NCBI GenBank assembly: GCA_949358305.1 | Contig: OX442314.1 | Span: forward strand, 19,344,001-19,408,000 | Source: Strigamia acuminata | Taxonomy: Eukaryota | Reading direction: 5' to 3' | DNA: 64,000 nucleotides | Part shown: positions 12,067 through 49,578 of the stretch, in pieces | How the letters are laid out: every line of letters begins with the position of its first letter | How positions within the stretch are numbered: the first letter of the stretch is position 1 | Translations under genes and position numbers: made by a program | The notes under the pieces: model-generated | Told to the model about the DNA's origin: nothing | The model's database searches: none | The model's input: only the letters and a program-made list of their open reading frames with translations

Positions 12067-12246
12067 TGATGGTGGATGAGTTAGATTTATGTAGATATAT
12101 ATATTTTAGGTCGCAGAGCAACTTGTGCTGCGACTAGCGTTTATTCTAGTAGGACAGGAAGTGAAGGGGTAAAGGGGGAAGGGAGTGACCAGTGGGTGGT
12201 CCAATACAAAACATCATGCCGAGATGACGTATAAAACATTCCAACA
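12067..12246 (-). repeat. 3' LTR of copia A
   Basis: Identical by eye to 23590-23769; preceded on the minus strand by PPT GAGAAGGAG. Confidence 0.96.
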
Positions 12247-12295
12247 CTCCTTCTCATCACAAATGATGTTGGTTACATAAAAAAAACAATAAAAA

Positions 12296-13900
12296 TTAAC
12301 TCAAAAATAAGTTTAACATTTTTAAACAATCTTCATGCTTCGGTCGGTAGAGTCCTTTGGTGAAGACATCTGCTGCCATTTGAGTGGTTGGCAGGTAGTG
12401 GAGACTCATTTTCTTATCTTCTACGACTTCTTTGGCGAAGTGAAAGTGCATATCGATGTGCTTGCTATCATGATAGCTCGAATGATCTTGTGAGAAGCAA
12501 ATGGCGGCCTGGTTGTCACAAAAGACGTCAGTTGCTTCCTGTTGCATTGTTTGGCAGCCCAACTCAATTAGAAGTCCTCTGAGGTGCAGGAGTTCCTTTG
12601 CTGCCTCCGATACCGCCATGTACTCAGCCTCCATGGTCGAAAGTGCAACGGTATGTTGCTTCTTGGATGCCCACGAGATTGGGCTTCCGGCCAAAATGAA
12701 CACATATCCTGTGGTCGATCTTCTGTCGTCGATGTCGCCACCCCAATCCGCGTCGGCGAATCCGTACAAATTTTCTTCAGTCTTCTCGTAGGTGATGCCT
12801 AATTTTCGCGTCCCTTTCAAGTATGAAAGTACCCTTTTCGCAGCTTTCCAGTGTGTTTCACCTGGATTTGCGCAGAAACGACTGAGGCTGCTCACTGCGA
12901 AGGCCAAATCTGGGCGAGTCGAATTCGACAGGTAAATCAATGCGCCAATTAACTCGCGATATGGCACGTTTTTCATTTTCTTCTTTTCTTCGTTTGTCTT
13001 GGGTGACATTTCTTTGGTTAGCTTCAGTGCAGGGTCAATTGGTGTGCTGACGGTGTTGCAGTTTGTCATGTTGAAGCGTTCCAAAATTTCATCGATGTAT
13101 TTGGTCTGAGTGATTTGCACAGTGTGTTCTTCCTCGTTTTGATTAATTTCAATCCCCAAGCAGTATTTCAGCGATCCGATGTCTTTCATCTTGAATTTAT
13201 CGCTTAAGTCGGACTTAATCTTGTTCATAGTTTCGGAGTTTTCAGCTATTATGATTAGGTCGTCTACGTAGACTGCAATTATGGTGGATTTTCCCTCTTC
13301 CAATCTGTAGAAGACACACGGATCTTTGTTGCTACGATTTAATTTCATCTTTTTGCGGAGGTGGCGACTTAGCTTCTTATGCCAATTCCTTCCGGCTTGC
13401 TTGAGTCCGTAGAGTGATTTCTTTAGCAAACAGACTTTATCTTCCTGTCCTTCTTCAACGAAGCCATCTGGTTGTCGCATAAATATTTCTTCATCGAGTT
13501 CGCCTTGAATATAGGCGGCGACAACATCCATTTGGTCGATTAGCCATCCCTTCTCAACTGCATACGCGATGAGAGTGCGGATAGAGTTGTAACGGACCAC
13601 AGGGGCGTAGGTTTCGTTGAAGTCAACTCCTTCTTTCTGCATAAAACCCTTGGCAACCAATCGTCCTTTGTAGCGGTCTATGTTGCCTTGCTTGTCCCGT
13701 TTGATGCGGAAAACCCAACATGAAAAAATCACTTTTTGATTTTTGGGTTTGTCGACAAGTATCCACGTTCCCATCTCCTTCAGCGCGTCGATTTCGTTTT
13801 GCATGGCTTCGCGCCATTCATTTCGATCGTCTCTGGACATCGCTTCTTCGACGGTGATGGGGTCTGATGGGAGTGAGCCGCAAACGAAATTTGCTGATCC
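12296..13900 (-). CDS. Copia A reverse transcriptase / RNase H
   Basis: DPITVEEAMSRDD...[44 protein letters not shown]. Out of frame with the upstream integrase ORF; the 5' limit is approximate. Confidence 0.93.
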   Translation of the reverse strand, partial: GSANFVCGSLPSDPITVEEAMSRDDRNEWREAMQNEIDALKEMGTWILVDKPKNQKVIFSCWVFRIKRDKQGNIDRYKGRLVAKGFMQKEGVDFNETYAPVVRYNSIRTLIAYAVEKGWLIDQMDVVAAYIQGELDEEIFMRQPDGFVEEGQEDKVCLLKKSLYGLKQAGRNWHKKLSRHLRKKMKLNRSNKDPCVFYRLEEGKSTIIAVYVDDLIIIAENSETMNKIKSDLSDKFKMKDIGSLKYCLGIEINQNEEEHTVQITQTKYIDEILERFNMTNCNTVSTPIDPALKLTKEMSPKTNEEKKKMKNVPYRELIGALIYLSNSTRPDLAFAVSSLSRFCANPGETHWKAAKRVLSYLKGTRKLGITYEKTEENLYGFADADWGGDIDDRRSTTGYVFILAGSPISWASKKQHTVALSTMEAEYMAVSEAAKELLHLRGLLIELGCQTMQQEATDVFCDNQAAICFSQDHSSYHDSKHIDMHFHFAKEVVEDKKMSLHYLPTTQMAADVFTKGLYRPKHEDCLKMLNLFLS

Positions 13901-15690
13901 TCGTTCGGGTCGAATGCGGTTTCTTGATTTTCGTTGGCGGGTTCAATGTCGTGTGTTCGGATTAAGTTGTATTGCTTCGACGGGCGCCCCGGTTTTCCGG
14001 TCCTTACGAGTTTTGGACGTCCCGGGCCTCGTTTGGTTTCAGCAGGTTGATTTTCAATCGGAATTTGCGCGTCGGCTTCATCGACATCGATTTCTCCTTC
14101 TGTTTCAACTTCGTTGTCATTGTTGCGCGCAGTAATGGCGTCAGGCGGCAGGCTTTCGGGTTCGTCAAAACTGGGAAAAATAAAAAATGGATCAGCAAAT
14201 GATTTTTCGCCATTATTTGAGATGGCATCGGTTGACTCGAAAATTTTGACGTGGCAGCTTTTCACGACTCTTTGTCGGGCAGCATCATAAAGTTTGTACG
14301 CTTTTGATTCAGCTGAATAGCCTATTAGTGTCAATTCATTTCCTTTTGCTTCAAATTTTCCTCTTCCCGGCCCCTGCTGCAACACGATGGCTTTGCTGCC
14401 CAGTCTTCTCAGGAAACCAATATATGGCTTTTTGCCGTGCCATACTTCAAATGGTGTTTGGTTCTGCAATGACTTGGTTGGGCAACGATTTCTGATGAAG
14501 ACAGCACTGTCTATAATTTCAGCCCAAAGGTGTCGTGGCAAATTCGATTCTATCATCATGCATCTTGCCATTTCACACAGCGTGCGGTTCATGCGCTCAG
14601 AAACGCCATTTTGTTTTGGTGTGTACTCGACCGAGAGTTGGCGACGAATCCCTTCGTCTTCTAAGAATTTGGTGAACGTGGCGCTGACGTATTCCTTGGC
14701 ATTGTCGCTGCGAATTTTCTTAATTTTTCGTCCGGTTTCGAGTTCGACTCTTCGCTTGAAGTTTTGAAATGCTCGGAAAATTTCGCCTCTTTCTTTCAAA
14801 ATTGCGACTTCGGTGTAGCGAGATTTGTCATCGATGAACGTGGCGAAATATTTGGCCCCTCCAAGCGAAGTGATTGGCATTGGTCCGCAAATGTCGGAAT
14901 GGATCAAATCGAGTACGTTTTCAGCGCGTGTTGACGACGGTGGGTGTGAGCTTCGGTGTATTTTCCCCTTTGCACAGGTCTCGCAGTCGAATGTTTCGCT
15001 TGTGGCGTCGAATTTTAGTCCATTTACCATTTCGTGTTTCTTTAGTTGCTGTAAAGCGGCCAAATTTAAATGTCCGAAACGATGGTGCCATATTTTCGAG
15101 TTTAAACTAATTTTCCCGGTGGCGACGTTTGCAATCTGCAGCGGTTTTGTTCGTATGATGAACATGTCGCCCCGTCGTTCAGCTTTCATGATCGTTTTTC
15201 CCTTCTTGCTGATTGTTGCGTTGTTTTCGGTGAAAATAACTTCAGCGCCCTGACTGGTAATGCGTGGTACTGACATCAAATTTCCGCTTAAGTCGGGTGC
15301 AAACATGACATTCTCCAAAACAATTGGTTTTTCGTAATCGTCCACGTCAAGGTGTATTTTTCCAAGTCCCTCGCTCTTCACGTACGTCTTGGAAGCGGTT
15401 CGAATTTGTCCCTTCATTGTTTCGTTTAGGCTGGAGAACATCTCACGATTTTTGCACATGTGGCGCGATGCGCCGCTGTCCAGGCACCATTCGACATTAT
15501 TCAGTGTGTGGTCGCTTTGGTAAGCGACGGCATAATTTGCTGATTCGGGCTGGTCATTTGCTGTTGCGATTTCTACATCACGTTCAGTCGGCGTCGCCTT
15601 TCCGTCAAGCTCAGTCGGTGTCATTTTTCCGTCTACGATTTGATACGTCGATACGACGGTCGCGGTAAGTGCTTCAGCGTCGACTGTCTT
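13890..15690 (-). CDS. Copia A protease / GAG-pre-integrase / integrase
   Basis: WCLDSGAS, WHHRFGHLN...CETC, HSDICGP, RSDNAKEY, QNGVSERMNRT. In frame with gag 22607-23364 once element B and one TSD copy are removed (NNNKT-VDAEALTA...GKMTPT). Confidence 0.93.
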
Positions 15691-16155
15691 TATTGGTTTG
15701 CGATGAATTATTTGCGATAATTATATTTGTTGTGCATTTCCGAATAGGCACAATAAGCGCGTTACTTCATATATTGTTACGAATGGTCAGCCAGTTGATT
15801 CTGCTTTTTAAACTACGCTTGTTTCGTACTCCAACTGGCTGTGTCTATGTGATAACGCGCGTCCCGTCGTCTGCTTGTTAAGCGACGATCGTTTAATTTG
15901 GTTTGGTATTGTTTATCGATTACTTTAGTCTTTACGTTGTATTATTGTAAAGAATAAATCTATTTGGTTATACTAATAGATTTGTTCTCGTTGTTACTCT
16001 GTAACCTGAGTTGAGATCAAATAGCCTCAACCCAGATCACTTGTTTTATGCTTTCATGGTGAATAAAGATGGCGGTCGCGTGTTGCGAACTAACCGCACT
16101 TTATAATCGGTTTGCAAGTTATTTCCGCATGCTCCAGGTCCAAATACGCTCTTCA
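15691..16155 (+). repeat. 5' LTR of copia B
   Basis: Identical by eye to 22142-22606; contains AATAAA signals; followed by AA and the PBS. Confidence 0.96.
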
Positions 16156-16157
16156 AA

Positions 16158-16171
16158 TGGTAGCAGAGGAT
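16158..16171 (+). promoter_or_regulatory. PBS of copia B, complementary to the 3' CCA end of tRNA-iMet
   Basis: TGGTAGCAGAGGAT, 2 nt after the LTR; it matches the complement of the animal initiator Met tRNA 3' end (...CAUCCUCUGCUACCA). Confidence 0.9.
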
Positions 16172-17279
16172 CGGCGACGACCAGCGCCGGCCAATTTTAG
16201 AAGAATTGAAGAGAAACGGACATTTTTCCGACTCCAAGAAGTCGCGAAGTGCGCGCCCGCCCAATTCGTCGTGAAAACGGATTTTCGGTGCGGCAAACGT
16301 CTGGATTACGTGTGCGGACCATTCTGCAAAGGAATAGGATTCCAACGGTGTAAGGAATATTTATTTCGAACGATTTAAACTGTATTTTTGCCGATATAAC
16401 CGGGCTTTCTCGGGCGGCGCCATTTTTGTTGAGCTTCGCTGCAGAATACGGCGAAGTTAGTGTGTCTACGCGTGTGTACGGACCGGCACACGCACGCCCA
16501 ACGATTCTACAACGGAATACGTCGACAGGACGGTATTTTGGAGCAAAGAAGCGTCCCAAAACCGTCAATTTTTTCGAGAAATCACCGTGAATCGACGATT
16601 TTGTTACGGTGGCCATTTTTCGTCAAAAATAGACGGAAAAACGACGATTTGATTCACCGAGAAGTCCTGCACACGATAAGCGTGTGTGTGGGCAATTGTT
16701 TCCGTACCTCGCACCAGGAAAGCGAGTACGAAGGCGCAGACGGGCGCTACGACGATTTTCTCCGCGCTTACACGGATGTGTGTACGCGGATTGCACGTCG
16801 GCCCCAGTTCCGTGCGAAGACAACGTGAAGCCGACGTTTAATTCAACGTGGGAACCAGTTACGACGCGTGAAACCCGTAACTGGCCAACTTCACATCGGA
16901 AACTGTATTTTTCGAATTTTTCTCGTGAAACTCTGTTATTTCTTAAGGTTTTTGTGTTGGGTCACTTAGAATATTCTGTACCCTTCGGGCAGTCGCCCCA
17001 GTACAGTCTCATTCCAGTCTGGGCTTGTCCGTGGCCAACTAGTCGTCCCGCGTCCCCCAGGTGGGCCGGTCGGAAGCTAGTAGGGCGACCAGATTTGGGT
17101 TTTTCATCTCACTTATTGAGGTGCCCCTTGGGAAGTGTAAAATTATTTCGCCTTCAATTTTTGGGGGCAAATTGCTTCTCCGTGCGACATATTCACGTGT
17201 ATTGTGAATATTTGTGTTTTTCTTCGGAAATTTTGTGATTTAGCGATTTGTGCGTCGTTTTTCGTCGAATTTTCTCAAC

Positions 17280-20200
17280 ATGGCAAGTTGGGATCGCCGG
17301 GACGACTATAAGGACGTGGAAAAATTGAATGGAACGAACTATTCGACGTGGAGTGTTCAAATCCAACTCCTTTTGCAATCATATGGAGTTTGGGGCCACG
17401 TGACTGGCAAGGAGAAGCCCTTGCCAGCCACGGCTTCTGCAAAAGAAGTTAGGGAGTTTGACAAGCGCGAGGAGAAAGCGCGCTCCACCATTTGTCTGGC
17501 TTGTGGAAAAGCCCAACAGGTAGTGGCTGTGGCACACGAAGGGGCCAAAGAGGTTTGGGAAGCGCTCAAAGCTGCTTACCAGCCCACTACCAGGGCACGC
17601 AAAGCCCGACTTCGTCGCGAATTTCTCATGTTGAAACTCCATGAGCAAGAGGAAATGATGGTTTTCCTAGCCAGAGTCGACAGGAAGGCGCTGGAACTGA
17701 AAGACGTCAAAATAGACATTTCCGACGAATTCCTGGCCTTCCAGTACCTGGATCTGCTGCCACATCAATACGAAACGGTCAAGCAGACGGTCTACCACTG
17801 GGGAGACCCGGAATTCACCTCGAAGGCCGTCAAAGAACGTTTATTAGGCGAATATAATCGCCTCTACGAGCAAACGGATGAATTTGGTGTTTCATTGGGC
17901 ACAATTGAGAATACGGGTGCCTATTTCACCAAAGGCAGATGGCAACGTGGCCGGGGGGGAAATGCCCCCAGTTCTCCACGCGTCTGTTACAACTGTGGCG
18001 GAACAAATCACTTCGCCCGGGAATGCTCGTCCCCACCAAAACAGCAACAAGGTGCTACGAGAGGAAACCCGACAGGACAGTTCAGCAGGGGCAGTCAACG
18101 AGGGAAGAGTCGTGGGAAGAGCCAGCAGACGGCCAACGTCACGCAAATGGACATTTTTAGCAATTCCCCGGTGTCTTATTTCTCCGCAGCGATTTGCCAA
18201 GAACAACCCCCTGTTGTAGTGTCTTTATTGTCGCATGCGAACTACGATTCGCAATGGTACGTCGACACAGGTGCGACGGACCACTTTTCGTTCAACAAAA
18301 CCTGGTTTTCGGACTTTAAACCATTGACTGGTTATTCTGTTCAACAAGGAGACGGAAAGTCGAAAATCGAGGGCATTGGAAATGTGACTTTAGTTTCGAT
18401 TAATGGACGACAAACACGTGAACTAACGTTGAAAAACGTTTATTACGCACCCAACTTCAAAAAGAATTTGATTTCTTTAGGTCGTACGGATGAAGCTGGG
18501 GCGACGACCATTGTGAAAAATGGAAAAATGTTTATTTATGATGTGACAATTGATGACCCTTCTATCACTGCGATACGTACGAGTGATAGGATGTACAAAG
18601 TCAATTGTCGCATTAATGCAAAGAATTCTGTAAACACAGTTGCACTGTCTGCGCAACAGAGTGCAACAGTGGCACCGACTCCACCTTTAGCGGGTGAAGA
18701 AATTGTGAAATCTTTACTAACACACGTTGATTTTAGAACCGCATTAACCCAAAATTTGAGTAAATCAGGGAAACCTGTACCTGCGAATGAGGGGCAAGCG
18801 AAAACTGCGAATAATGCGCCAGCGATCGTTGCAAACAATGCGAGTATGGAAATTTCGAATCAACAATCGAGTGTTTTGACCGACACACAGTCTAGCTTAG
18901 TGGCCAGCAAGGGCAATAAGCCCAAGGATGCGAAAATTTTGAAAACAATTGTGCAAAACAATTTAACAAATGGAAATGGGGTTGTAAATGGAAAGAATGC
19001 TTCCATTAAACCAGATAAACCCCAAACGATGGACATCTGGCACTCTCGTATGGGACACCTTAATGCAAAGGGAATTGCATTGTTAAACAAATCTACTGAA
19101 GTGTTTGGTTTGAAGTTGTCCAACACGGAATTGTCGAGTTGTGATGCTTGTTCGAGGGCGAAAAGCACACGTGCCAGTTTTCCCCCCATTGCGACCATTT
19201 CGACCAAAGGGATTTTAGAAATTGTCCATTTAGACGTGTGGGGCCCTTCACCAGTTAAGAGCATAGGTGGGGCGTACTACTATTTGGTCATGGTCGATGA
19301 CTTCTCACGATTGATGTGGATCGTGATTATGAAGAAAAAGAGCGAAGTTTTGGGCCATTTTAAGAAGTGGTTAACCGAAATTGAAAGAACGACTTCTAGG
19401 AAAGTCAAGTCGATCAAAACTGACAATGGAGGGGAATTCGTATCCAAACAATGGGATGAATATGCCGGTAGCATTGGGCTGAAGTGTATGCGGACGAACG
19501 CATACAGCCCTGAGATGAACTCCATCGCTGAAAGAACGAACCGTACCATTCTTGGTGGAATTAGAGCTTTAATGATTGAAAATAGTCTTCCTCCATCCCT
19601 GTGGGCAGAACTCGCAGTTTCTGTCGTTTATTTAAAGAACCGGTTTCCGCATGCGGGATTGGGTGGGAGGACACCTTATAATGTGTTTTTCAATAAGAAA
19701 TTATCCCTACGACATGTCAAGTGCATTGGAGCTTTAACTTATGTACATGTCCCTTCGCAGACAAGGGCTGGGAAGTTACAAGAGAGAGCATGGGCGGGGG
19801 CCTTAGTTGGATATGCCTCTTCCACCCGTGGTTATCGGATTTGGGATCCGAACAAAAACCAAGTTTTTCTCTCAAAACACGTTAAAATTTTGGAACAGAA
19901 TTTCTGGTACGAGAATGTAAAGAATCCCCCATCTGGCCCATCACCTGCTACTGACGATTCAGATTTATCAGGTGAAGAGTCTTGTAATGACTCTGACACG
20001 GACAGTGTTCACAGCGAACCTATCCCTGAAGAAGAGGTCAAAGTGGTTGAAAAACTCGTGGAGAGACCCATTCAGGCCAGACCACCTGGGGGACCCGACT
20101 ATGTAGATGCCATGCAATACATCATTGGAGATATACATGGCCTAAATTTTGATGAAATCGGTGGGGCGAAGGGGGATGATAGGGATTTCTTCAATATTTA

Positions 20201-22124
20201 TCCCGACGACGATGAAGGAGAAGTTGAAGAGGAAGTTGAGGACCCAGATGCAAGTGCTCAATTGTCGCCCCAATTGTCACCCACACCCCCTCGTCGGAAC
20301 CCGCCTAGAAAAGGGAAAGACATTGGCGAACGCACAGCTTCAACGAGTGACTTGTTGCCTCTAGATATGACTTTGTGGCAAAGACGGCAGACTGTACGTC
20401 AAAGCGGGGCAACAGCTGGGAAAGTTGATGTTTGGTACATCACACCAAAGCACGAGAAGCTCCGCAGCCGTGTTGAGGTTGTCCGTTGGTGCAAAGCCGA
20501 GGGATATGAATATAAATCGGAATTGTTTAACTTCAAAGATGTGACTATCGGTTTTGCTGGTTGCTGCTCTGTCGAGCCGGACACGTACGAAGAAGCGGTC
20601 AAAGGCGCCAGCAAACCTGATTGGGAAAACGCGATGGAAGACGAAATAAATATCTTCAAAGAGCGTGAGGTTTATGTCGAAGTCGACAAAGACCAAGTTA
20701 AAGACAAAACCTTATTGGGATCAAAATGGATATACAAGTTAAAAAGGGATCACACGGGTACGATTAGAAGATATCGTGCTCGTCTCGTTGCACAAGGCTT
20801 CAAGCAGAAGCCAGGCATTGACTTTACTGAGGTATTTTCCCCAGTAGTCAATTTTGTGTTAGTCATGATGTTCTTCTGTGTCTTAGTGGTACTGAGGGGC
20901 TGGCGTGACGTACACCTTGACATTAAGGCCGCATACCTATATGGGGACCTCGACGAAGTGCAATATATCCACATCCCAAAAGGATATCGAACGACTGAAA
21001 ACCAACACAAATGTTGGGAATTGAGAAAGTCTCTTTACGGGCTCCATCAGTCTGGTCGTATGTGGTACCAGCGACTCCACGACCAGCTGATTGAAATTGG
21101 ATTTGAACCGGTCTTGGGTCTCAATTGCGTGTATAGCTTGGGCACTGACGCTATACTTATTTTCTATGTCGATGACATAGTATTGTTTTCAAAAGACAAC
21201 ATAGCAGAGGAGTGCGTTTTGGATTGGATTCAACAATCATTTGAGATTGTCAATTTGGGCCCCGTCACCCTTTTGTTAGGGATAGAGTTTTGTAGGGACG
21301 GGGAGAATATCTTTATTCATCAACGCGCTTATATTGCAAAGTTGTGTAAGCAATATGGGATTGACTCTTGTCATCGAGTTAGAGTGCCTGGCACTCCGGG
21401 CACCATGATCCAAAAGGTTCAGACGGGGGAACGTGTCAATTCGAGTTTTCCGTATCGGTCTCTTGTCGGCAGTTTGCTCTTCATTGCTAGTCGCACAAGA
21501 CCCGATATTTTGTTTTCGGTGATAGTGTTGTCTCAATACAACGAGACTCACTCGACTCGACACGTGAACATGCTGCTCCAAATCTTGCGGTACTTGGGGA
21601 ACACGCCAAATTTCTCTATCAACTTGGGAAACTGCCAAAGCGAAAATTTGACCGTTTATACGGATGCGTCCTTCGCATTAGACCAGGACAAACGTCGGAG
21701 CTTTGGTGGGCACATCATCTACCTGGGAGGTGTCCCAATCTCATGGAACTGCCATAAGCAGACCATTACACCACTTTCCATTATGGAAAGCGAATTTTTG
21801 GCGGTGGTCGATGGTGTAAAGGAGATAATTTGGTTGGAGCGCATATTTGGTGCGGATGTAATGATGGAGGGGCTCAACCGGGAAATACCATGTGTTTACG
21901 CTGATTCAATGCCAGCGATCCAATATGCGAAGAATCGCATAGAAAATCGCGCAAACAAACACATTGATGTTAAACTGCATTTCGTGCGCGACTGGTTTGA
22001 AAAAGGTGTTTTTCGAATCAGACATATCCCGGGAACCCTTAACGTAGCCGACCTTATGACCAAGTGGCTATCTCGCGCAAAACTAGATGCATTGTGCGAG
22101 CATATTTTTGTAACGGCAAAGTAG
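17280..22124 (+). CDS. Copia B gag-pol polyprotein: Gag, CCHC knuckle, PR, IN, MBD, RT, RNase H
   Basis: First ATG at 17280; EKLNGTNY, CYNCGGTNHFAREC, WYVDTGAT, WHSRMGH, HLDVWGP, KTDNGGEF, MBD at about 20358-20537, YVDDI, YTDASF, KHIDVK. Confidence 0.96.
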   Translation: MASWDRRDDYKDVEKLNGTNYSTWSVQIQLLLQSYGVWGHVTGKEKPLPATASAKEVREFDKREEKARSTICLACGKAQQVVAVAHEGAKEVWEALKAAYQPTTRARKARLRREFLMLKLHEQEEMMVFLARVDRKALELKDVKIDISDEFLAFQYLDLLPHQYETVKQTVYHWGDPEFTSKAVKERLLGEYNRLYEQTDEFGVSLGTIENTGAYFTKGRWQRGRGGNAPSSPRVCYNCGGTNHFARECSSPPKQQQGATRGNPTGQFSRGSQRGKSRGKSQQTANVTQMDIFSNSPVSYFSAAICQEQPPVVVSLLSHANYDSQWYVDTGATDHFSFNKTWFSDFKPLTGYSVQQGDGKSKIEGIGNVTLVSINGRQTRELTLKNVYYAPNFKKNLISLGRTDEAGATTIVKNGKMFIYDVTIDDPSITAIRTSDRMYKVNCRINAKNSVNTVALSAQQSATVAPTPPLAGEEIVKSLLTHVDFRTALTQNLSKSGKPVPANEGQAKTANNAPAIVANNASMEISNQQSSVLTDTQSSLVASKGNKPKDAKILKTIVQNNLTNGNGVVNGKNASIKPDKPQTMDIWHSRMGHLNAKGIALLNKSTEVFGLKLSNTELSSCDACSRAKSTRASFPPIATISTKGILEIVHLDVWGPSPVKSIGGAYYYLVMVDDFSRLMWIVIMKKKSEVLGHFKKWLTEIERTTSRKVKSIKTDNGGEFVSKQWDEYAGSIGLKCMRTNAYSPEMNSIAERTNRTILGGIRALMIENSLPPSLWAELAVSVVYLKNRFPHAGLGGRTPYNVFFNKKLSLRHVKCIGALTYVHVPSQTRAGKLQERAWAGALVGYASSTRGYRIWDPNKNQVFLSKHVKILEQNFWYENVKNPPSGPSPATDDSDLSGEESCNDSDTDSVHSEPIPEEEVKVVEKLVERPIQARPPGGPDYVDAMQYIIGDIHGLNFDEIGGAKGDDRDFFNIYPDDDEGEVEEEVEDPDASAQLSPQLSPTPPRRNPPRKGKDIGERTASTSDLLPLDMTLWQRRQTVRQSGATAGKVDVWYITPKHEKLRSRVEVVRWCKAEGYEYKSELFNFKDVTIGFAGCCSVEPDTYEEAVKGASKPDWENAMEDEINIFKEREVYVEVDKDQVKDKTLLGSKWIYKLKRDHTGTIRRYRARLVAQGFKQKPGIDFTEVFSPVVNFVLVMMFFCVLVVLRGWRDVHLDIKAAYLYGDLDEVQYIHIPKGYRTTENQHKCWELRKSLYGLHQSGRMWYQRLHDQLIEIGFEPVLGLNCVYSLGTDAILIFYVDDIVLFSKDNIAEECVLDWIQQSFEIVNLGPVTLLLGIEFCRDGENIFIHQRAYIAKLCKQYGIDSCHRVRVPGTPGTMIQKVQTGERVNSSFPYRSLVGSLLFIASRTRPDILFSVIVLSQYNETHSTRHVNMLLQILRYLGNTPNFSINLGNCQSENLTVYTDASFALDQDKRRSFGGHIIYLGGVPISWNCHKQTITPLSIMESEFLAVVDGVKEIIWLERIFGADVMMEGLNREIPCVYADSMPAIQYAKNRIENRANKHIDVKLHFVRDWFEKGVFRIRHIPGTLNVADLMTKWLSRAKLDALCEHIFVTAK
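20358..20537 (+). other. Methyl-CpG-binding domain (MBD) within the copia B polyprotein
   Basis: PLDMTLWQRRQTVRQSGATAGKVDVWYITPKHEKLRSRVEVVRWC...ELFNFK aligns by eye to the MBD2/MeCP2 pattern W-x7-R-x-SG-x2-AGK-x-DV-Y/x-Y-x2-P-x4-(F/L)RS...F-D/N-F. Confidence 0.92.
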
Positions 22125-22141
22125 TTCATCGAAGGGGGATT

Positions 22142-22606
22142 TATTGGTTTGCGATGAATTATTTGCGATAATTATATTTGTTGTGCATTTCCGAATAGGC
22201 ACAATAAGCGCGTTACTTCATATATTGTTACGAATGGTCAGCCAGTTGATTCTGCTTTTTAAACTACGCTTGTTTCGTACTCCAACTGGCTGTGTCTATG
22301 TGATAACGCGCGTCCCGTCGTCTGCTTGTTAAGCGACGATCGTTTAATTTGGTTTGGTATTGTTTATCGATTACTTTAGTCTTTACGTTGTATTATTGTA
22401 AAGAATAAATCTATTTGGTTATACTAATAGATTTGTTCTCGTTGTTACTCTGTAACCTGAGTTGAGATCAAATAGCCTCAACCCAGATCACTTGTTTTAT
22501 GCTTTCATGGTGAATAAAGATGGCGGTCGCGTGTTGCGAACTAACCGCACTTTATAATCGGTTTGCAAGTTATTTCCGCATGCTCCAGGTCCAAATACGC
22601 TCTTCA
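22142..22606 (+). repeat. 3' LTR of copia B
   Basis: Follows PPT GAAGGGGGA plus TT; followed by TSD GTCTT. Confidence 0.96.
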
Positions 22607-23364
22607 GTCTTGTTGTTGTTCGATTTTCCCGCGTGGCCTGGCTTCCTTTTACGGCAGTCTTTTGCCAAATGTCCCACCAATCCGCATTTGTTACATTTTC
22701 CTTTAAATTTAAAAGAAGTGTTATTAGTTTTGATAAAATTGTTTTTGGCGGTTAAAGCGTTTTGAGGCGCTTTTTCGTTTTTGCGTAAGTCCTCGTCCTC
22801 CTGCAGCAATTTAATTTTCACTGCGGCGAGGTCGGGTAGCGTTTCCCTCATTTTTATCGATGAGCGGAACAATGCGAATGTGTCGGGAAGCGTGTCCATC
22901 AGTAATATCACTAACAGGTCGTCGTCGAGCGAGCTACCGGTCTGTTTTAAGTTCTGCGCCGTTTCATCAAAGTTGTTCAAATGCGTGTTCATCGTCTCGT
23001 CGTCAGATTTGCGCATATTGATTAGTTTTTTGAATAAAAACATTTTTCGGTGCGGGCCCTTCGGTTGAAAGAATGCTTCCAACTTGTCCCACGCCTCGGC
23101 GGACGTTGTGGCTGTACTAATGGCGCCTTGGTGCGTGCGATTTATGCCCAATCCGATGGTTGCGAGGGCGATTTCGTCCTTCTCTAGCCATTCGTTCACT
23201 GCAGTTGTGTTTGGAACATCTTCCGTGGCTTCCGGTTTGACTGTTCGTTTACACACGTACGCCCAAAGTTTGTTGCAAATTAACACGTTTTTCATCTCAG
23301 TTTTCCAAGATTCATAATTGTCCTCACCGAGTTTTTCTACCTTAAATCCTCGAACTGATTCCAT
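22607..23364 (-). CDS. Copia A gag (N-terminal part, cut by insertion of B)
   Basis: MESVRGFKVEKLGEDNYESW, gag helices, knuckle CNKCGLVGHLAKDC. Confidence 0.92.
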
Positions 23365-23577
23365 TTTTCGTTTTCAAAAGTTCAAAAATATTTGCCTGGC
23401 ACTGTTTGAATTGCGTTTGGTGGTTACACGGCTTGATGTGGCTTGATGCACGTCTCTCAGCTCGGGTGTACACGTGGTCGCTCGTTCACGGCTTGACTTT
23501 TCGATTTTTTGATGTATTTTTGCGATTTTTCGGGAAAAATGTTCGTAACTCACTGTTGCGTAGTGTATGCAGGTGTT

Positions 23578-23589
23578 GGACCCATAACC
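23578..23589 (-). promoter_or_regulatory. PBS of copia A, internal (half-molecule) tRNA-iMet type
   Basis: GGTTATGGGTCC immediately after the LTR's terminal CA; resembles the Drosophila copia PBS GGTTATGGGCCCAG. Confidence 0.82.
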
Positions 23590-23769
23590 TGATGGTGGAT
23601 GAGTTAGATTTATGTAGATATATATATTTTAGGTCGCAGAGCAACTTGTGCTGCGACTAGCGTTTATTCTAGTAGGACAGGAAGTGAAGGGGTAAAGGGG
23701 GAAGGGAGTGACCAGTGGGTGGTCCAATACAAAACATCATGCCGAGATGACGTATAAAACATTCCAACA
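23590..23769 (-). repeat. 5' LTR of copia A
   Basis: Identical by eye to 12067-12246. Confidence 0.96.
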
Positions 23770-23885
23770 CATTCAAAGCAATGTACGACGGGGAGCATAA
23801 AAAAATCGCACAGGGCGCTATTAAACCTGGAGACGGTCGGCCCCGTGTTTCCGTTTGTAGTTGTACAAACGGAACTATTCATTAT

Positions 23886-26800
23886 TGTAGTTTTTGTTCT
23901 AATATGTTGGAGGCATAAAAATGGAGACGTGTGGTTGTTAGGTGAAAATATTAACAGTGATGGTTTTAATCTTAAACAGATGTTAAAAAGTGCGTGGAGC
24001 ACCAAATACAATTCGGGTCACTGATTGGTCAGTGTCAGTGACAGGTGCACAGGTGACAAAGACACCTGGCGGACAGGAATACAACATTCAATAAACAACA
24101 CTTCCCCTGAATGGCAATATTCCTACATTTTAAAATTCAAAACATTTTTCTTAAACAATTCAGACATTTAAAAAATTAAAGTATTCATTCACAAACAATT
24201 CAAATATTAAAAACAATATTTCTTAAACAATTTCCTTCAATCCAAATTGGGCGATCAATTCTTCGTGTTTTGGCTTAAAAAGCCCCTTGGTCAACACATC
24301 GGCGACCATCTTCTCACTCTCCAGGAATTCTATGTCGATATCTCCCCGCTCACATGTTTCTCGAACGAAATGGTGGCGAATGTCGATGTGCTTGGTCCTG
24401 GAATGAAAAATTGGGTTTCGCACCAATTTGTGTGCCCCCTGATTATCGCTATAAATGAGGGTCGTTTCTTTCTTCTTGTTGATGTATTTAATTTCGTCTA
24501 GGAAGTTTCGCAAGTAGATTGCTTCTTTTGACGCTTCGGCCAACGCCATATATTCTGCTTCGGTCGACGAGGTTGCGACGGTCTTCTGCTTTCTTGCTTC
24601 CCAGCATATTGTCGCGTTCGCGAGTTTAAAGCAGTAGCCGGTGTACGAGCGACGGTCGTCCAAGTTTGCTCCCCAATCTGCATCCGTGTAGCCGACTAAG
24701 TCTTTTCCGGTCTTTTCGAATTTTAGCCCGAGATTCGATGAGTGCTTCAAATATCTTAGGACGCGTTTTGCTGCTGTCCAATGAGTTCCGGTGAAACACG
24801 TATTATATTGACTTAATGCGCTGACGGTGTAGGAAATATCGGGTCGAGTGCAAACGGCGAGGTACATGAGTGATCCGATTAAACTTTGGTACGGGAAATT
24901 CTCTGGATCCAGTAGCTCTTCGTCGGTCCCATCCTCCTTTTTCTTGTTTTTCTGCAATTTCTGATTTGCGTCGAGTGGAGTTGTGTTTTTCGAGCAGTCT
25001 TGCATTCCGAAACGATTCAGTATGTCCTTAACGTATTTTTTCTGCGCCATCGTGATTGATTTCGTCTTTTCGTCCTGTTTAAACTCGATTCCCAAGCAGT
25101 AGTGAATTTGTCCTAAATCCTTCATTTTGAACTCGCTCTTCAGGTTCGATTTTAATTTCTCCAAGTTTCTTTTGCAGTTCGTTGCGATGATAAAATCATC
25201 CACGTAGATTGCGACGAGCGTGATGACTTCTCCATTCGTTTGGTAATACACGCATGGGTCTGCGTTTGTTGGCTTCAGTCCGTGCTTTTGCAACTTCTCG
25301 TCCAGTTTTTTGTACCACTGGCGACCCGACTGCTTCAATCCGTATAATGCCTTTCTCATCCGGCAGACTTTTCCTTTCTTGATTTTTATTCCAGCGATAA
25401 ATTCCAAATATTCGGGGAATTCCATAAAAATTTCCTCTTCGATTTCGCCGTTCAAATATGCCGTTATCGCGTCCATTTGGTGTACGGTCAATCCCAACTC
25501 GGCTGCGATTGCCATCATCATTCGAATTGATCCCGGTCGTGCGACGGGCGCGTAGGTTTCAAAGTAGTCGATGCCTGGCTGCTGTGCATATCCTTTGGCG
25601 ACCAGTCGGGCCTTTCTGCGTTCGATTGACCCGTCTGCTTCAAATTTTGTGCGGAGGACCCATCTACATCCGATTACGTTTCTATTTTTCGGTCGGTCGC
25701 ACTCCTCCCACGTTTCGTTTTCAATTAAAGCGTCGTATTCGTCCTTCATCGCTTTCATCCATTCTTGTGGGTCGTTTCCATTCAAAGCTTCGGCCGCTGT
25801 CGTTGGATCGTCGAGAATTGCTATCTGTGCAATTTCGTCCAAAACTTCATTAGTTGTTGTCGGATTCTTTCTGGTGTATTTCTTTCTGGGTGGGTCCCCA
25901 TTTCGATTTGGGTAAGGTTTTGGCGTTCTCGAGGATCGTCGTGGAATTATTTGCGCGTTTTCATTCTGACGAGGTTCGGCTTCTTCGTGTTGCGTCTCTC
26001 TCTCGTCCTCATTGTCGGGCTCGTTCTCGCCTGCGCTCTCGACTTCGTCCTCGGAAATTTCGGTTCCATTCTCGATTTGATCTGTTCTGCAATCGGTGAG
26101 AATGTCATTAAAATTATTGTTATTATCGTTTTCTTCACATTCTTCATTCGTTTCATTTTCCGATTTTTCGACAAATTTCACGTCTCGACTTTTTATAATC
26201 TTATTTTCGCTTTTCGACCATAAACGATACGCCTTCGATCCGTCCCAATATCCGATGAGAATACATTCTTTTGACTTCGGTTCGAACTTCCCCTTGTTTG
26301 GTTTCTTGTCCAACGCAAAAACTCTGCTCCCGAAAACTCGAAAATAGTCAACATTTGGTTTTCTTCCGGTCCAGACTTGATGCGGTATTTCATTTTCCAA
26401 ACTTCTAGTCGGGCATTTATTTCGGATGTGGCACGCAGTGTTGATTGCTTCCGCCCAGTATGTGTTGGGCAATTTTGCTTGCAGTAACATGCATCGTGCC
26501 ATCTCGATTAAAGTTCTGTTCATTCTTTCAGATACGCCATTTTGTTCCGGTGTGTGGGCGACGCTGGTTTGACGTTTTATGCCGTTTTCTCGCAGATAGT
26601 TGTCAAAGTTCTTGTTTACGTATTCCTTCCCGTTGTCCGATCGTAAAACTTTGAGTGCGCAACCAGTTTCCCTCTCGCAAAACGTTTTAAATGACTTGAA
26701 TGCCTCGAAAACTTCGCTTTTGTGCTTCAGAAAATACACTTTGCACCACCTCGATTTGTCGTCGGTGAAGGTCACGAAGTATCTTGATCCGTTCATGGAC

Positions 26801-28659
26801 TTTGTTGGCATTGGTCCGCAAACGTCCGAGTGTACAAGTTCCAGCAGTTTTTCGCTTTTTGACGTGGAGTCAGGAAATTTCGTACTTGCGTGCTTCCCCT
26901 CGATGCAAGTTTCACAAGTTGGCAGCTTGGCGTCCTTTTCCAAGTTCATTCCGTCCGCCTTTTCGTTTAGTATTTTCAGACTTGACTCGTTCAGGTGCCC
27001 AAGTCTTTTGTGCCATTCTTGTATTTTCGTACTTGCGGGTTTTGCAGGTTTTGATCCGGTTCCGACTTCGATTTCCGCTGCAGTCGCAGCATCCTCGGTC
27101 TCGTCGACGATGTAATACAATCCGTTCCTTTTTTCGGCGGTGAATATGATTTCTCCCTTCGGATTTATCACTTCTGCTGATTTATCATCGAAAATCACCT
27201 TGTGTCCCCGTTCTGTGATCTTCCCGACTGACATCAAATTCGTTCGCAAATCTCGTACCAAAAGAGTTTCCGCCAAATCCAGTTTCATATTTCCGTTCCC
27301 GGTGTTGACGACAATTTTCGCGGTTCCTTTTCCGTCGATTTTTGTACTCGCTTTGCTGGCCAAATTCAGTTTTTGGTTTTTCAGGAATTCGATCGTCGAA
27401 AATGTTGAATCGTTCGAGCACATGTGGGAGCTGGCGCCGCTGTCCAAACACCAATTCTTTGGTCGTGACTTCTCGCTTATCAGGGCTGTCTCGATTTGCT
27501 CGCAAAAAAATAATTCGTACTTGGATTTCTCGGCTCTTGATGCGCTTTCCTTCTTGCTTTTACTTCGGCAATCGGCGATTTTGTGGCCAATTTTTCCGCA
27601 ACCGTGACACTTGTATTTAAAAGCTGGCTTCTCGGTCGAATTCGAATTTTCGTCGCCGTATTTCTTTGGTTGCTTACGTTTTTGGAACGTTTTTCTGGCC
27701 ATCATGGCGTCCGATACGTCTTCTTTCCCTTTTCCGCGGGCGATTGACTCGTCTTTGATCTTTCCCTCCAAAACTTCCAGCGAGGGCAATTTATCTTGCG
27801 ATTCTATTGCGCATCTGAAGTTGTCGTAAGAGTTCGGCAGGCTTAGTAGCAGTAAGATCGTTGTGAAGTCTTCGGGCATCTTGAAATCCATGTCTAGTAG
27901 CTTATCCACCAGCTCGAAGAATTCTTTTAAGTGGTTCTCCACGTTTTCTCCGTCCGCCATCTTGTGTGTTGCGAGTCGTTTTAACAACGTGATTTTTCTT
28001 GCCGGTCCTTTCGATTGGTACACACTATGCAGCTTCCTCCACAATTCGTTCGCGGTGTTGCAATTTTTAGCCATTCGAAGTTCCGATTGTTTTATATTTA
28101 GCAAAATGTCATTTTTGGCTGTTCGATCACTTTTCTCCCACGTTTCGATCTCCTTCATACGTTTCGCGTTTCCTTCAATGGTTTCTGGTCGTTTCGACGT
28201 ACCTTCCGCGTGCACGAGTAGGTCCCGTTGATCCAAAATTGCTTCCATCTGGATCTTCCATGTGTCGAAGTTTTCCTTTCCCAACGCCTCAATTCGAGCT
28301 GAATTTCCGCCGCCGTTCGCCATCGTTTCTTAGTTCTGTTTCTTGTGGAATGTTCGTGTTAAATTCGTTTTTAACTTCCTCGAATGTTCCGGTACAAAAC
28401 TTGATGATTTTTAAGCGCAGTGGAAGCGTGCTGGGCCCATAACCTGTAGTTTTTGTTCTAATATGTTGGAGGCATAAAAATGGAGACGTGTGGTTGTTAG
28501 GTGAAAATATTAACAGTGATGGTTTTAATCTTAAACAGATGTTAAAAAGTGCGTGGAGCACCAAATACAATTCGGGTCACTGATTGGTCAGTGTCAGTGA
28601 CAGGTGCACAGGTGACAAAGACACCTGGCGGACAGGAATACAACATTCAATAAACAACA
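23886..28659 (-). mobile_element. Ty1/copia LTR retrotransposon C (intact)
   Basis: 215-bp LTRs at 23886-24100 and 28445-28659; TSD ATTAT at 23881-23885 and 28660-28664; PBS GGTTATGGGCCCAG at 28431-28444; PPT AGGGGAAG at 24101-24108. Confidence 0.97.
24223..28323 (-). CDS. Copia C gag-pol polyprotein (1366 aa, uninterrupted)
   Basis: CHGCGKIGHKIADC, WCLDSGAS, WHKRLGHLN, HSDVCGP, RSDNGKEY, YVDDF, GYTDADWG, RTKHIDIRHHF. Confidence 0.96.
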   Translation of the reverse strand: MANGGGNSARIEALGKENFDTWKIQMEAILDQRDLLVHAEGTSKRPETIEGNAKRMKEIETWEKSDRTAKNDILLNIKQSELRMAKNCNTANELWRKLHSVYQSKGPARKITLLKRLATHKMADGENVENHLKEFFELVDKLLDMDFKMPEDFTTILLLLSLPNSYDNFRCAIESQDKLPSLEVLEGKIKDESIARGKGKEDVSDAMMARKTFQKRKQPKKYGDENSNSTEKPAFKYKCHGCGKIGHKIADCRSKSKKESASRAEKSKYELFFCEQIETALISEKSRPKNWCLDSGASSHMCSNDSTFSTIEFLKNQKLNLASKASTKIDGKGTAKIVVNTGNGNMKLDLAETLLVRDLRTNLMSVGKITERGHKVIFDDKSAEVINPKGEIIFTAEKRNGLYYIVDETEDAATAAEIEVGTGSKPAKPASTKIQEWHKRLGHLNESSLKILNEKADGMNLEKDAKLPTCETCIEGKHASTKFPDSTSKSEKLLELVHSDVCGPMPTKSMNGSRYFVTFTDDKSRWCKVYFLKHKSEVFEAFKSFKTFCERETGCALKVLRSDNGKEYVNKNFDNYLRENGIKRQTSVAHTPEQNGVSERMNRTLIEMARCMLLQAKLPNTYWAEAINTACHIRNKCPTRSLENEIPHQVWTGRKPNVDYFRVFGSRVFALDKKPNKGKFEPKSKECILIGYWDGSKAYRLWSKSENKIIKSRDVKFVEKSENETNEECEENDNNNNFNDILTDCRTDQIENGTEISEDEVESAGENEPDNEDERETQHEEAEPRQNENAQIIPRRSSRTPKPYPNRNGDPPRKKYTRKNPTTTNEVLDEIAQIAILDDPTTAAEALNGNDPQEWMKAMKDEYDALIENETWEECDRPKNRNVIGCRWVLRTKFEADGSIERRKARLVAKGYAQQPGIDYFETYAPVARPGSIRMMMAIAAELGLTVHQMDAITAYLNGEIEEEIFMEFPEYLEFIAGIKIKKGKVCRMRKALYGLKQSGRQWYKKLDEKLQKHGLKPTNADPCVYYQTNGEVITLVAIYVDDFIIATNCKRNLEKLKSNLKSEFKMKDLGQIHYCLGIEFKQDEKTKSITMAQKKYVKDILNRFGMQDCSKNTTPLDANQKLQKNKKKEDGTDEELLDPENFPYQSLIGSLMYLAVCTRPDISYTVSALSQYNTCFTGTHWTAAKRVLRYLKHSSNLGLKFEKTGKDLVGYTDADWGANLDDRRSYTGYCFKLANATICWEARKQKTVATSSTEAEYMALAEASKEAIYLRNFLDEIKYINKKKETTLIYSDNQGAHKLVRNPIFHSRTKHIDIRHHFVRETCERGDIDIEFLESEKMVADVLTKGLFKPKHEELIAQFGLKEIV

Positions 28660-44708: not shown

Positions 44709-47700
44709 TGTTATGCTGGGGCATCACGTTGAAATAAAGGAGAGGTTTTTAAAGTGGAAAACAAAACACACGTCTTTACTCGTGGGTAAAATACAAGCAA
44801 GTGAGGAGTAATACAACATTGTCATGGTAACGCTTTTACAACAATGTAACAGTATGATATAGCAGTAACACGTTCTTAACAATGAACTCAACATCACATT
44901 AACATAACTTAACATTACTTCCCCTGAAACCCATTATGCCCTGATAATTGGTTTCACACCTAATAATTCTCTGAAATTACTTAATTTCACTTTATCTAAA
45001 GGCTTTGTCAATAAATCAGCTTCATTGTTCTCGGTTGGAACAAATTCCAATTTGACTCGTTTCGCCTTTATCTGTTCTCTGATGTAGTGGTACCGGACAT
45101 CAATATGTTTTGATCTCCGGTTCTCCACATTGCTTTGTGCAAAAACTTTAGCTGGTTGGTTGTCGCATCTCATGATTGTTGGTCCTCCGATCAACGTTGA
45201 CAAATCCAACTCTTCGATCAGTCGTCGCATCCATACAATGTCTTTCGAACAATTGCACATCGAGATGTACTCGGCTTCCATGCTGCTGGTGGCTACGACC
45301 TTCTGCTTGCTGCTCTGCCATATTACTAAATTCTCGGCTAGTTTCAGCAAAGTTCCGCTGTAAGATCTTCGGTTAATCTTGCAATTCGCCCAATCTGCGT
45401 CTGCGAATGCAGTCAAAAATCCTTTATTCTCATTGTAAACCAATCCGTGTTTCTTGGTTCCCGACAGATATCGTAGAATGCGTTTGGCCATTTGCCAGTG
45501 ATTGGTTTTTGGTTTGCTGTTAAATTGTGCTAACACATTTACAGCGTGTGAAATGTCCGGTCTCGTACTGTTGGCCAAGTAAGATAAGCAGCCAATTACC
45601 TCTCTATAAGGCTCGACCGTCAGATCTTCAAATTCTTCTGGCTCTTTCTTATTGTTGTCAGTACATTTCACCATTGGTGTCGCCATTGGTTTTGAATCAG
45701 TCATGTTGAATCTCTTCAGGATTTTCTCAACATATTTTTCTTGCGTTAAAAACATGTTTCCGTTTTTATCCCGTCCAAATTCGATTCCTAACATGTACTT
45801 CAGAGTTCCAAGTTCTTTGATTTCAAAACATTTACGCAGTCTCTTTTTGATTTCTCGACACATGTTTTCTGATTGTCCGGCTATCACCATGTCGTCGACG
45901 TAAACCCCGATAATTCCGCGTTCGTTTCCTATTTGAATCCAATAAACACACGCGTCGGAAAAACAACGTTTGAAACCCTGTTTCTCGAGTTCCTCGTCCA
46001 ACTTGTCATTCCACGCACGTCCTGATTGTTTTAATCCGTATAACGACTTGATTAGTCTGCACACTTTGTTTTTCCATTTTCCCACTAAGCCTTCGGGAAT
46101 TTCCATGTAGACTTCTTCTTCGAGTATACCATTTAAGTATGCTGTCGTTACATCAACTTGTTCCAACACCCAACCCAAAATTACAGCTATAGCAATTATG
46201 AGTCGCATTGTCGCAATTCCGGCCACTGGAGAATATGTCTCGGTATAATCATGACCGTAGCGCTGTGTAAATCCTTTGGCAACTAAGCGCGCTTTATACC
46301 GCTCAACTGAACCATCTGGGTTTTGTTTGACTCGAAACACCCATTTACAGCCAATCGCTTTGCTGTCTTTTGGTAAATCCGTAATCTCCCATGTTTCATT
46401 CTTGTGTAAGCTGTTTAATTCGTCATCTATTGCGGTTTGCCATTTCGTTGCGTCCTTGGAATTCAATGCCTCTTGGTAGGTAGAAGGTTCTTCAAAATGA
46501 CAAAACATTGCTGTTCCTATCAAATCCTCTTCATCTTCCTCCTCAGCATCTTCCGTTTCTGCAACTTCCGGTTCCGCTTGTTGTTGCACCTGACTTCGGA
46601 GAATCATCTTTGTTGGTTCGTACTGTTTTTGAACGGCTTCAGCTTTTGTCGGTCGTCCACGTTTTGGTTTTGCCGCTGGCGGAACTTGTTTCGGTTCGTC
46701 GAAAGTGAGAGTCATTACTTCCTTCGCGTCCAATTCATCCGTTTCGTTGAATCCGAATTCATTTTCTTTGAACACGACGTCACGTGAAGTCATCACTTTT
46801 CTTTTCTTGGTATTCCACAACCGATATGTCTTCTCCCCGGCTGAATACCCAAGAAATATGCATTTTTCTCCGCGATTGTCCAATTTTCTTCTTTTGGCCG
46901 CGGGAACGTGCATCACTGCATTGCAGCCAAACACTCTTAAGTGTTTCACGGATGGCGTTCGCCCGTACCAAACTTCATACGGCGTTTTCCCAGTGATTTG
47001 TGTCACTGTCCGGTTTCTCACGTAAACTGCAGTATTGACTGCTTCAGCCCAAAAATCTGCACCCAATTGCGTTTGGATCAAACTTGACCGCACCAGATCC
47101 AGCAATGTCCGGTTTAATCTCTCAGAAATTCCATTTTGTTCTGGGGTGTACACTGCGGTGCGTTGATGAGAAATTCCTTTCTCCTTCAGGAAACGGTCAA
47201 ATTCTTCGTTGCAGTATTCGAGCCCGTTATCCGTTCGCAAGGCTTTTATTTTCTTCCCCGTTTTTCTCTCCATTCTCGTCATGTAATCTTGAAATTTTTC
47301 AAGCGCTTCAGATTTGTGGGTCAGAAAGTAGACATCTATTTTCCTTGACTTATCATCAATAAACGTAATGTAGTAACGATGCCCTCCCTTGCTCTTTGTT
47401 TGAAGTGGACCCGCAATGTCCGAATGGATCAAATCCAGTACTTCGGATGCCAACTTCCGTTCTTCCTTGTTGAATGGTTTTCGGGTGGATTTTCCTTGGA
47501 GACATGAATCACATTTGCTGATTGCATCTTTGTTGATCTCCAATCCCCTGACTTTGTCTTTTTCGGCCATCTTTTGTAGACTGTCCAAAGACACGTGCAT
47601 GTATCTTTGATGCCAAATTTCGTTTTTGGTCGCTTCCGTTGTCGCCGTCATCCCGTGATGTGACGCCTCGTTGACCAGATACATTCTGTTTTCTCTCTTC

Positions 47701-49578
47701 GCTCGAAGAATCACGACATCCTTTGAATTCATCACGTTGCAAAATCCGTTCTTGAATGACAACCAGTAGCCTTTTGCTTCCAGTTGCGCGACGGAGAGTA
47801 AATTCATCGTCACTTCCGGCACGTAAAGTACTTCTTTTAAAATCGTTGGTACTGTCTGCCCATCGTACACGAAATCTACGTTGATGTCCCCTTGAGCTTC
47901 TACTTTGACCTTCTTTCCGTTTGCGATATTTATTTCCGCCACTTTGGGATTTTGAAGTTCCAAAAATTTCCCTTTCTGCGCTGTCATGTGATGACTCGCT
48001 CCTGAATCGATCACCCAAACGTCCTTATCCGCTCGCGCCGCAAATGCCGACATAACATTGGCCTTCTTGTGGTCACTGGAATTCTTGGACTCAGTGCTTC
48101 TTTCCTTCTTGGGCTTGTGGCAGTCCCGCGCATAATGGCCAAATTTGTTACAATTGTAACATTTGATCTTTTTAAGATCACGTTGCTGTGGAATCTTGTT
48201 CGCAATTAGCACAGCCGAATCCCGTTTGGTATTGTCTGAAGTCTCTCTTCTTGAAGACTCCGCCAATATCATGTCTTTTATTTTGTTCGACGTGAAATCC
48301 GCTTTTGCAATCGTGTGTACTGACGTAATCAGTCCTTCGTATTCTTTGGTCAAACCACATAACATGGCCCAAGCCAAATCTGTGTCCCCGACCGTTTGGC
48401 CCGCATTCGTTAATCTCTCGGAGCATTCGGACACTCTCATGAGATACTTGTCCATATTTTCACCGGTCTGCTTCATTGTTGAATAAAGTTCTCGGCGGAG
48501 TTGGACGATGCGTAACGAGTTCGTCGGTTCGTAGACTTCTTTCAGTCGATCCCAAGCTTCTTTTGGACTTTGCAATCCCCGTATATGTGATTGCTGTTGT
48601 GTTTTGATTGTCAAACCAATTATTGAAAAAGCTTTATTGGTCAGCTCTGCCAATTTCGTCGCGTCAGCTTCTTTTTCAGTCCCATCAACTACAGCCCAAA
48701 GTTTCTTCTCAGTAAGTAGCAGTTTGACACTAAATGCCCATGACAAATAGTTGGACCCGTCCATTTTTTTCAATTCCGTAGGACGTAATGCCTGATGATG
48801 ACGTCGTATCTGTCATCTCGTTTCGGAAAATTTTCAAAATTGCAAATAGCACAGACTGTTGTCAGTTTCAAACAATTTTCCCCCAAAATAGCAACAACAA
48901 TTGAAACAAACTTAATGCTATCTTAAATCTACAACAAAGCTTCGTTGCGCAGATCCTAACAATACAAGTTTTAAACAATTGCATGCACAAATAGTTCGTT
49001 TTGCTTCAATAATGGCGTCGTTTTCTTCTTGTTTCGATTGCACGTGCAGTTCGAAAATGGCGTCGTTCGAATCCCGTTCGTTGCAAACTCGTTGAAAATT
49101 ATGCCTTTCGTCCCTTATGGCTCATGAAGCTAATTACTAGTCGAAAATAACTCACAGTTCCCGACCTCGTTTGCGTCCTCGTTCGATTTAGGCCCGTCTT
49201 GCCACACGTTCGATTCCGCTCGTTTTTCCGTTTTCTCGGAACGTCTGCCGCACGTTCGAATCGTCTGCCGTACGTTCGAATCGTCTCGTCGTGCCGTGGA
49301 AACGTTCGTCTACCTTTCCGATATTCGTTGGACACACCCGCGCTGCTTAACGTCCTGGACCCATAACCAATTTGTTATGCTGGGGCATCACGTTGAAATA
49401 AAGGAGAGGTTTTTAAAGTGGAAAACAAAACACACGTCTTTACTCGTGGGTAAAATACAAGCAAGTGAGGAGTAATACAACATTGTCATGGTAACGCTTT
49501 TACAACAATGTAACAGTATGATATAGCAGTAACACGTTCTTAACAATGAACTCAACATCACATTAACATAACTTAACA
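44709..49578 (-). mobile_element. Ty1/copia LTR retrotransposon D
   Basis: 206-bp LTRs at 44709-44914 and 49373-49578; TSD AACAT at 44704-44708 and 49579-49583; PBS TGGTTATGGGTCCAG at 49355-49369; PPT AGGGGAAG. Confidence 0.97.
44934..48816 (-). CDS. Copia D gag-pol polyprotein (apparent +1 frameshift in an A7 run just after the start)
   Basis: CYNCNKFGHYARDC, WVIDSGAS, WHQRYMH, HSDIAGP, RTDNGLEY, YVDDM, AFADADWA, RSKHIDVRYH. The ATG at 48816 joins the main frame if one A is removed at 48764-48770. Confidence 0.93.

Follow-up and report, generated by a model that had tools for sequence, protein, structure and literature searches.

Element B, one of five Ty1/copia LTR retrotransposons (A to E) that lie amid tandem host genes in the 64-kb stretch of DNA analysed here (the window), is an intact and recent CopiaMBD, a copia with a methyl-CpG-binding domain (MBD), and is nested inside element A. 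With somewhat more belief than doubt, we consider that its MBD biases integration towards DNA that is dense in CpG and probably methylated, transposon bodies for example. Methyl-CpG binding by CopiaMBD MBDs and a bias in the flanks of these elements have been described for published relatives (PMC6673714), and by analogy would hold for B. The idea that this creates a safe harbour was already published (PMC6673714), and the original prediction for this locus restated it from one insertion. The new details are the small-intron host, the TA...CA ends and a Trp that replaces the methyl-sensing Tyr.

Structure of element B and its nesting in element A

Five distinct copia families, with zero or one LTR difference each, make up about 41% of the window and represent a very recent multi-family burst. 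All four MBD-less elements lie on the minus strand, and the target-site duplications (TSDs) of the five elements are those originally given. A, B and C each seem to be multi-copy, judging from rough contig depths. The elements, their parts and one host spacer are as follows.

12067..23769, minus strand: element A, MBD-less Ty1/copia, split by B; TSD CATTC
12067-12246 and 23590-23769, minus strand: LTRs of A, 180 bp, identical
12296..13942, minus strand: RT-RNase H open frame of A, in a different frame from its protease-integrase part
13780..15690, minus strand: protease-integrase part of A, holding the left flank of B
15686..15690, plus strand: left TSD of B, GTCTT
15691-22606, plus strand: element B, Ty1/copia with an MBD, intact, single frame
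15691..16155, plus strand: 5' LTR of B, 465 bp, with non-canonical TA...CA ends
16156..17279, plus strand: leader of B, 1124 bp, CpG-dense (9.25 CpG/100 bp, observed/expected ratio (o/e) 1.57)
16158..16171, plus strand: primer-binding site of B, 2 nt past the LTR
17280..22124, plus strand: gag-PR-IN-MBD-RT-RH polyprotein of B, single intact frame, open from 17244
20376..20540, plus strand: MBD of B, amino acids 1045-1099, Pfam PF01429
22131..22139, plus strand: polypurine tract of B, 2 nt ahead of the 3' LTR
22142..22606, plus strand: 3' LTR of B, 465 bp, identical to the 5' LTR (0 differences)
22607..22611, plus strand: right TSD of B, GTCTT
22612..23366, minus strand: gag part of A, which includes the zinc knuckle and shares the frame of the protease-integrase part across the B junction
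23770..23885, no strand: host spacer between A and C, 116 bp, with 9 CpG (7.8 CpG/100 bp) and 46% GC
23886..28659, minus strand: element C, copia without an MBD, frame intact; one difference between its LTRs, TSD ATTAT
44709..49578, minus strand: element D, copia without an MBD, frame intact; lies in AT-rich DNA, TSD AACAT
52963..57936, minus strand: element E, copia without an MBD, frame intact; TSD AAAAA

The frame of B runs for 1626 codons without a stop and encodes gag, zinc knuckle, protease, integrase, MBD and RT in that order. The primer-binding site is of a type that we take to be complementary to initiator-Met-tRNA. Both LTR copies start with TA, not TG (15691-15692 and 22142-22143), and a family with such ends is invisible to tools that demand TG...CA. 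The leader is among the CpG-densest stretches of the window.

B was placed inside A by the original prediction, and the GTCTT duplication was confirmed on both sides. Within A, B separates the zinc knuckle from the protease, and its removal restores the frame of A across the junction, as had been claimed. Contigs joining 15685 to 22607, which represent A without B, were found in three of four sequencing runs, from two studies, one of which is possibly the source of the window. An assembly artefact was ruled out by the perfect TSD, the primer-binding site and polypurine tract in place and the uninterrupted A contigs in three runs. The nesting, and the arrival of B after A, are real. Among the 15 joints listed, of 28 in all, none had an end of B joined elsewhere in A, B or C, a result that carries no evidential weight.

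The identical LTRs correspond to a divergence of at most 0.64% for B and up to 1.65% for A (180 bp, 0 differences; both at 95%). Both elements are thus young, and the age gap between them is only loosely bounded; the identity of the A LTRs stands, and it sets no more than a loose limit on the earlier conclusion that B arrived soon after A. The frame of A is also broken a second time, between its integrase and RT parts; this break is independent of B and is missing from the A-family contigs of three runs, so that it is either peculiar to this copy or was introduced during assembly. The statement that B destroyed a functional element is therefore not justified. The proposal that B inactivates competing elements is not supported, in view of this break and of the uninterrupted A copies elsewhere.

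Relatives of element B and the residues of its MBD

B is a Ty1/copia element by its LTRs, 5-bp TSD, primer-binding site, polypurine tract and gag-PR-IN-RT order with RVT_2. Among elements A to E, the Pfam MBD was found only in B (E 2.8e-10; 40.1 bits against a cut-off of 21), in line with the original prediction. CopiaMBD was described by de Mendoza, Pflueger and Lister in 2019 as a Ty1/copia group in which a single frame encodes an MBD flanked by integrase and RT (PMC6673714), and B has the same arrangement as the published elements of Strigamia maritima and Stegodyphus spiders. On sequence grounds we assign B to this family; the original prediction had thus rightly spotted an element of a kind already known.

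When the MBD-RT stretch of B was used for a search together with a local profile, 32 of 165 proteins, B among them, proved to have an MBD-like domain. A quick IQ-TREE phylogeny of the RTs, with SH-aLRT and no bootstrap as support, covered 75 of the 165 (72 short proteins, 17 thinned MBD-less ones and one without an RT were dropped). B, 29 other MBD-bearing copias and five N-truncated rows that start too late to hold an MBD formed one branch (SH-aLRT 97), and A, C, D and E fell outside it. Independent capture of an MBD by B was dropped as unnecessary, since its RT lies inside this single branch. The named members of the branch are all spider proteins, whose MBDs resemble the Stegodyphus rows; the branch is anchored indirectly, through them, the published Strigamia and Stegodyphus RTs being absent from the tree. 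A helix cysteine of the B MBD is shared with 19 of the 22 published CopiaMBD rows and with no host MBD row at that column, as aligned by eye.

MBD-bearing copias were observed in Trichonephila clavipes, Parasteatoda tepidariorum, Araneus ventricosus and Argiope bruennichi (rows P0135, P0197, P0235, P0264, P0218, P0160, P0174, P0190, P0226, P0230 and P0243); in some of them the arginine fingers are degenerate. Parasteatoda and Nephila clavipes were scanned in the earlier study, and its available text reports none outside Stegodyphus (PMC6673714). The family is therefore wider in spiders than that text reported. Of the 77 loci returned by a metagenome scan, two had an MBD; these were short (1.7 and 2.9 kb) and had no usable flanks. 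Two word-index searches found no MBD-bearing relatives, the matches being nine generic copias in one and seven over-long proteins in the other. In the open literature searched, no paper other than PMC6673714 was found on CopiaMBD or on integration of methyl-CpG-binding retrotransposons in spiders.

B differs from the published CopiaMBDs in several respects. Its host is a different one, with small introns; its LTRs are 100% identical and have TA...CA ends, which are not discussed in the available text of PMC6673714. TA...CA termini with a 5-bp TSD are known from maize Hopscotch, a non-TGCA copia with TACA ends, but the TACA-ended copias described are from plants, and an MBD is not mentioned in the accessible part of that source (PMC9804982). 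The placement of a chromatin reader beside the integrase recalls the Chromoviruses, Ty3/gypsy elements with a chromodomain at the integrase C-terminus that is thought to steer them into heterochromatin; they belong to another superfamily, however, and the chromodomain reads histone marks whereas the MBD reads DNA (PMC6673714).

The MBD of B retains R22, K30, D32, R44 and S45 (MBD1 numbering), including the arginine fingers. At the position of Tyr34 it has Trp (codon TGG, 20433-20435). Tyr occupies this position in 28 of the 32 aligned domains and in all 22 published CopiaMBD rows; Trp occurs in B alone of the 32 and in none of the 22. Since TGG is two substitutions away from any Tyr codon, a single-copy error is unlikely. 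The available text of PMC6673714 describes the methyl-sensing Tyr as kept in "most" CopiaMBD copies, so it is typical but not strictly defining. Mammalian MBD3 (Phe34) likewise lacks the Tyr34 hydroxyl and keeps the arginine fingers; there, the change from Tyr to Phe lowers mCG affinity about tenfold without abolishing it, and mCG binding is said not to "strictly require" the Tyr (bioRxiv 10.1101/338061). By its sequence, B differs from MBD3 in having Trp and not Phe. A single-sequence fold of the B MBD (pLDDT 57.6) was set aside.

CpG content of the insertion sites

The flank of B had been described as packed with CpG, which is true of one side: the left 100 bp hold 14 CpG and the right 100 bp only 5. 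Whichever of the seven flank sizes was used, B had a higher flank density than the other four elements. With 100-bp flanks it was 9.5 CpG/100 bp, compared with 7.5 for A, 4.5 for E and 2.5 for D; with 150 bp per side it was 8.0, against 5.3, 5.0, 2.3 and 3.3 for the other four (bounds of A and C good to 1-2 bp). This comparison of the B family with other LTR elements rests on one versus four insertions in one window. Only 0.9-7.6% of non-B windows were as CpG-rich as the B site. Within A itself, the site was matched by 24% (50-bp), 2.6% (100-bp), 12.8% (200-bp), 26% (300-bp) and 14.8% (600-bp) of windows, percentages that come from five sizes of overlapping windows and are uncorrected. The protease-integrase part is the CpG-richest coding part of A, with 7.7 CpG/100 bp at 13943-15690.

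The four MBD-less elements were originally said to lie in AT-rich host DNA. This holds for D and E, but A and C share one CpG-rich host patch, where 116 bp separate them. The empty paralogous site of this patch has 14 CpG/200 bp and ties for the top of 737 host windows, and the CpG o/e of the B site (1.6) equals that of the host site of A (1.59 at 100 bp).

The host is probably an arthropod, and its genes have small introns. A tandem array of diverged small-intron genes occupies 2400-11700 and 28660-41500, with units of about 4.6 kb and 90-91% identity among the three youngest; from their motifs we take these genes to be neprilysin (M13)-like. A cluster of serine hydrolase (alpha/beta hydrolase) genes lies at 43407-44357, 49631-50563, 50888-52234 and 58963-59743, the copy near 59000-59700 being split into several frames. 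Among the best 120 matches of the host hydrolase, identity did not exceed 42%, and the best (33-42%) were spread across insects, chelicerates, myriapods and crustaceans. The exons at 62276-63438 presumably belong to a palmitoyl-protein-thioesterase-like gene, a label also taken from motifs, and a CpG-rich host patch (62192-62540) lies at its 5' end.

C and A lie upstream of a neprilysin-like first exon, C at a distance of about 290 bp and A, not counting C, at about 410 bp; D lies about 350 bp, and E 0.7-1.2 kb, upstream of serine-hydrolase genes. This pattern, measured post hoc to the coding starts of host genes (regions 23770-23885, 28660-28951, 44357-44709 and 51736-52963), suggests a promoter-proximal preference of the MBD-less copias. 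Any contrast between the site of B and those of A, C, D and E would be one between a transposon body and gene-proximal DNA, and so perhaps one of methylation state rather than of CpG density as such. Targeting of tRNA genes in the manner of Ty1 was ruled out, no tRNA or Rfam element being found near any insertion in the window.

Explanations for the insertion site of element B

Under the favoured explanation, the MBD encoded at the C-terminal end of the B integrase would stay with the integration complex, A would have been methylated when B arrived, and this site in A would have been chosen through the bias of the MBD. The gain for B would be the avoidance of genes, and the damage to A a side effect. 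Integration into methylated transposons as a safe harbour is itself a hypothesis of PMC6673714, whose available text does not reject other roles of the MBD. In that study, three Strigamia CopiaMBD MBDs bound methylated, CpG-dense DNA enriched in LTR elements in DAP-seq, and the flanks of young CopiaMBD copies were CpG-richer and more methylated. We counted for the MBD-bias explanation that the nested element is the MBD bearer, that its site is among the most CpG-rich of the window, and that R22, D32, R44 and S45 are retained while the Tyr is not strictly required for mCG binding (bioRxiv 10.1101/338061).

Several observations were counted against it. There is one insertion, its site is ordinary at most scales within A, and the MBD-less elements A and C also lie in CpG-rich DNA. 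The Tyr34 position holds Trp, in the spider of the earlier study CopiaMBDs accumulate in introns and not in transposable elements (TEs) (PMC6673714), and high TE methylation was recorded in only 2 of the 13 arthropods in Table 1 of PMC7343188. Signs of methylation from CpG transitions are weak: among the best 40 of about 794 variants, 11 of the 28 TE transitions listed were in CpG context, against an expected fraction of 0.258 (p 0.08), and the CpG-transition ratios of host paralogues were 1.7, 1.0 and 1.4.

The chief alternative, which we regard as unlikely but in need of serious weighing, is that B landed by chance and survived, in a gene-dense region and during a copia burst in which landing within an element is common and harmless and all elements are CpG-rich. 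MBD-less elements occupy 34% of the non-B window. With random insertion by length, at least one nesting among the five elements has P 0.69-0.87 and nesting of B has P 0.19-0.30, which bears out the original caution that a single insertion cannot exclude chance. Element bodies average 5.0-6.8 CpG/100 bp and host DNA 2.5, so that any nested element acquires a CpG-rich flank, and most of the richness of the B site comes from this. However, B is the sole nested element of the five and also the MBD carrier (P 0.07-0.08 for B alone being nested), the part of A that it entered is the one richer in CpG, and for two other species a bias of the family as a whole has been published (PMC6673714). Because the site is unremarkable within A at most scales and nesting of B by chance is not rare, the site fits a CpG or methylation bias but does not show one. 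The predicted MBD-guided safe harbour has a published model and a fitting site in its favour, with one insertion, the chance of nesting and the absent Tyr against it.

It is improbable, in our estimate, that the MBD with its Trp responds to CpG density largely or wholly regardless of methylation and steers B to CpG-rich TEs in a host that may not methylate them. The Trp, unique among the aligned domains, absent from the published rows and two substitutions off any Tyr codon, would agree with such a change, as would the lack of CpG depletion in the elements (o/e 1.08-1.41) and the weak excess of CpG transitions. The methyl-recognising arginine fingers are nevertheless intact, and MBD3 with its Phe still prefers mCG (bioRxiv 10.1101/338061). 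Strigamia TEs are CpG-dense although methylated (PMC6673714), so a high o/e in young elements tells little, and CpG-rich promoters should then be targets too. A wider reading seems to us equally improbable: B would found a CopiaMBD lineage whose Tyr-to-Trp MBD reads CpG density and homes, within the compact genome of an arthropod, on other young retrotransposons that are rich in CpG, while MBD-less copias land just upstream of genes, a target-niche split among co-active families.

Least probable of all is a role of the MBD elsewhere, with no part in site choice, such as binding the CpG-dense 1.1-kb leader of B or competing with host MBD proteins: such roles are listed as not rejected in PMC6673714, but the leader of D, which has no MBD, is equally CpG-dense (8.77 CpG/100 bp), and by analogy with chromodomains the MBD is placed where integrase targeting domains sit (PMC6673714).

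The authors of PMC6673714 asked whether integration is steered by the MBD or the bias stems from selection acting on copies already inserted. For this question, B and four MBD-less copia families with near-identical LTRs in 64 kb would make a better test system than the copies of 90% identity used before. B also widens the host range of CopiaMBD, and it represents a natural Tyr-to-Trp variant of a methyl reader.
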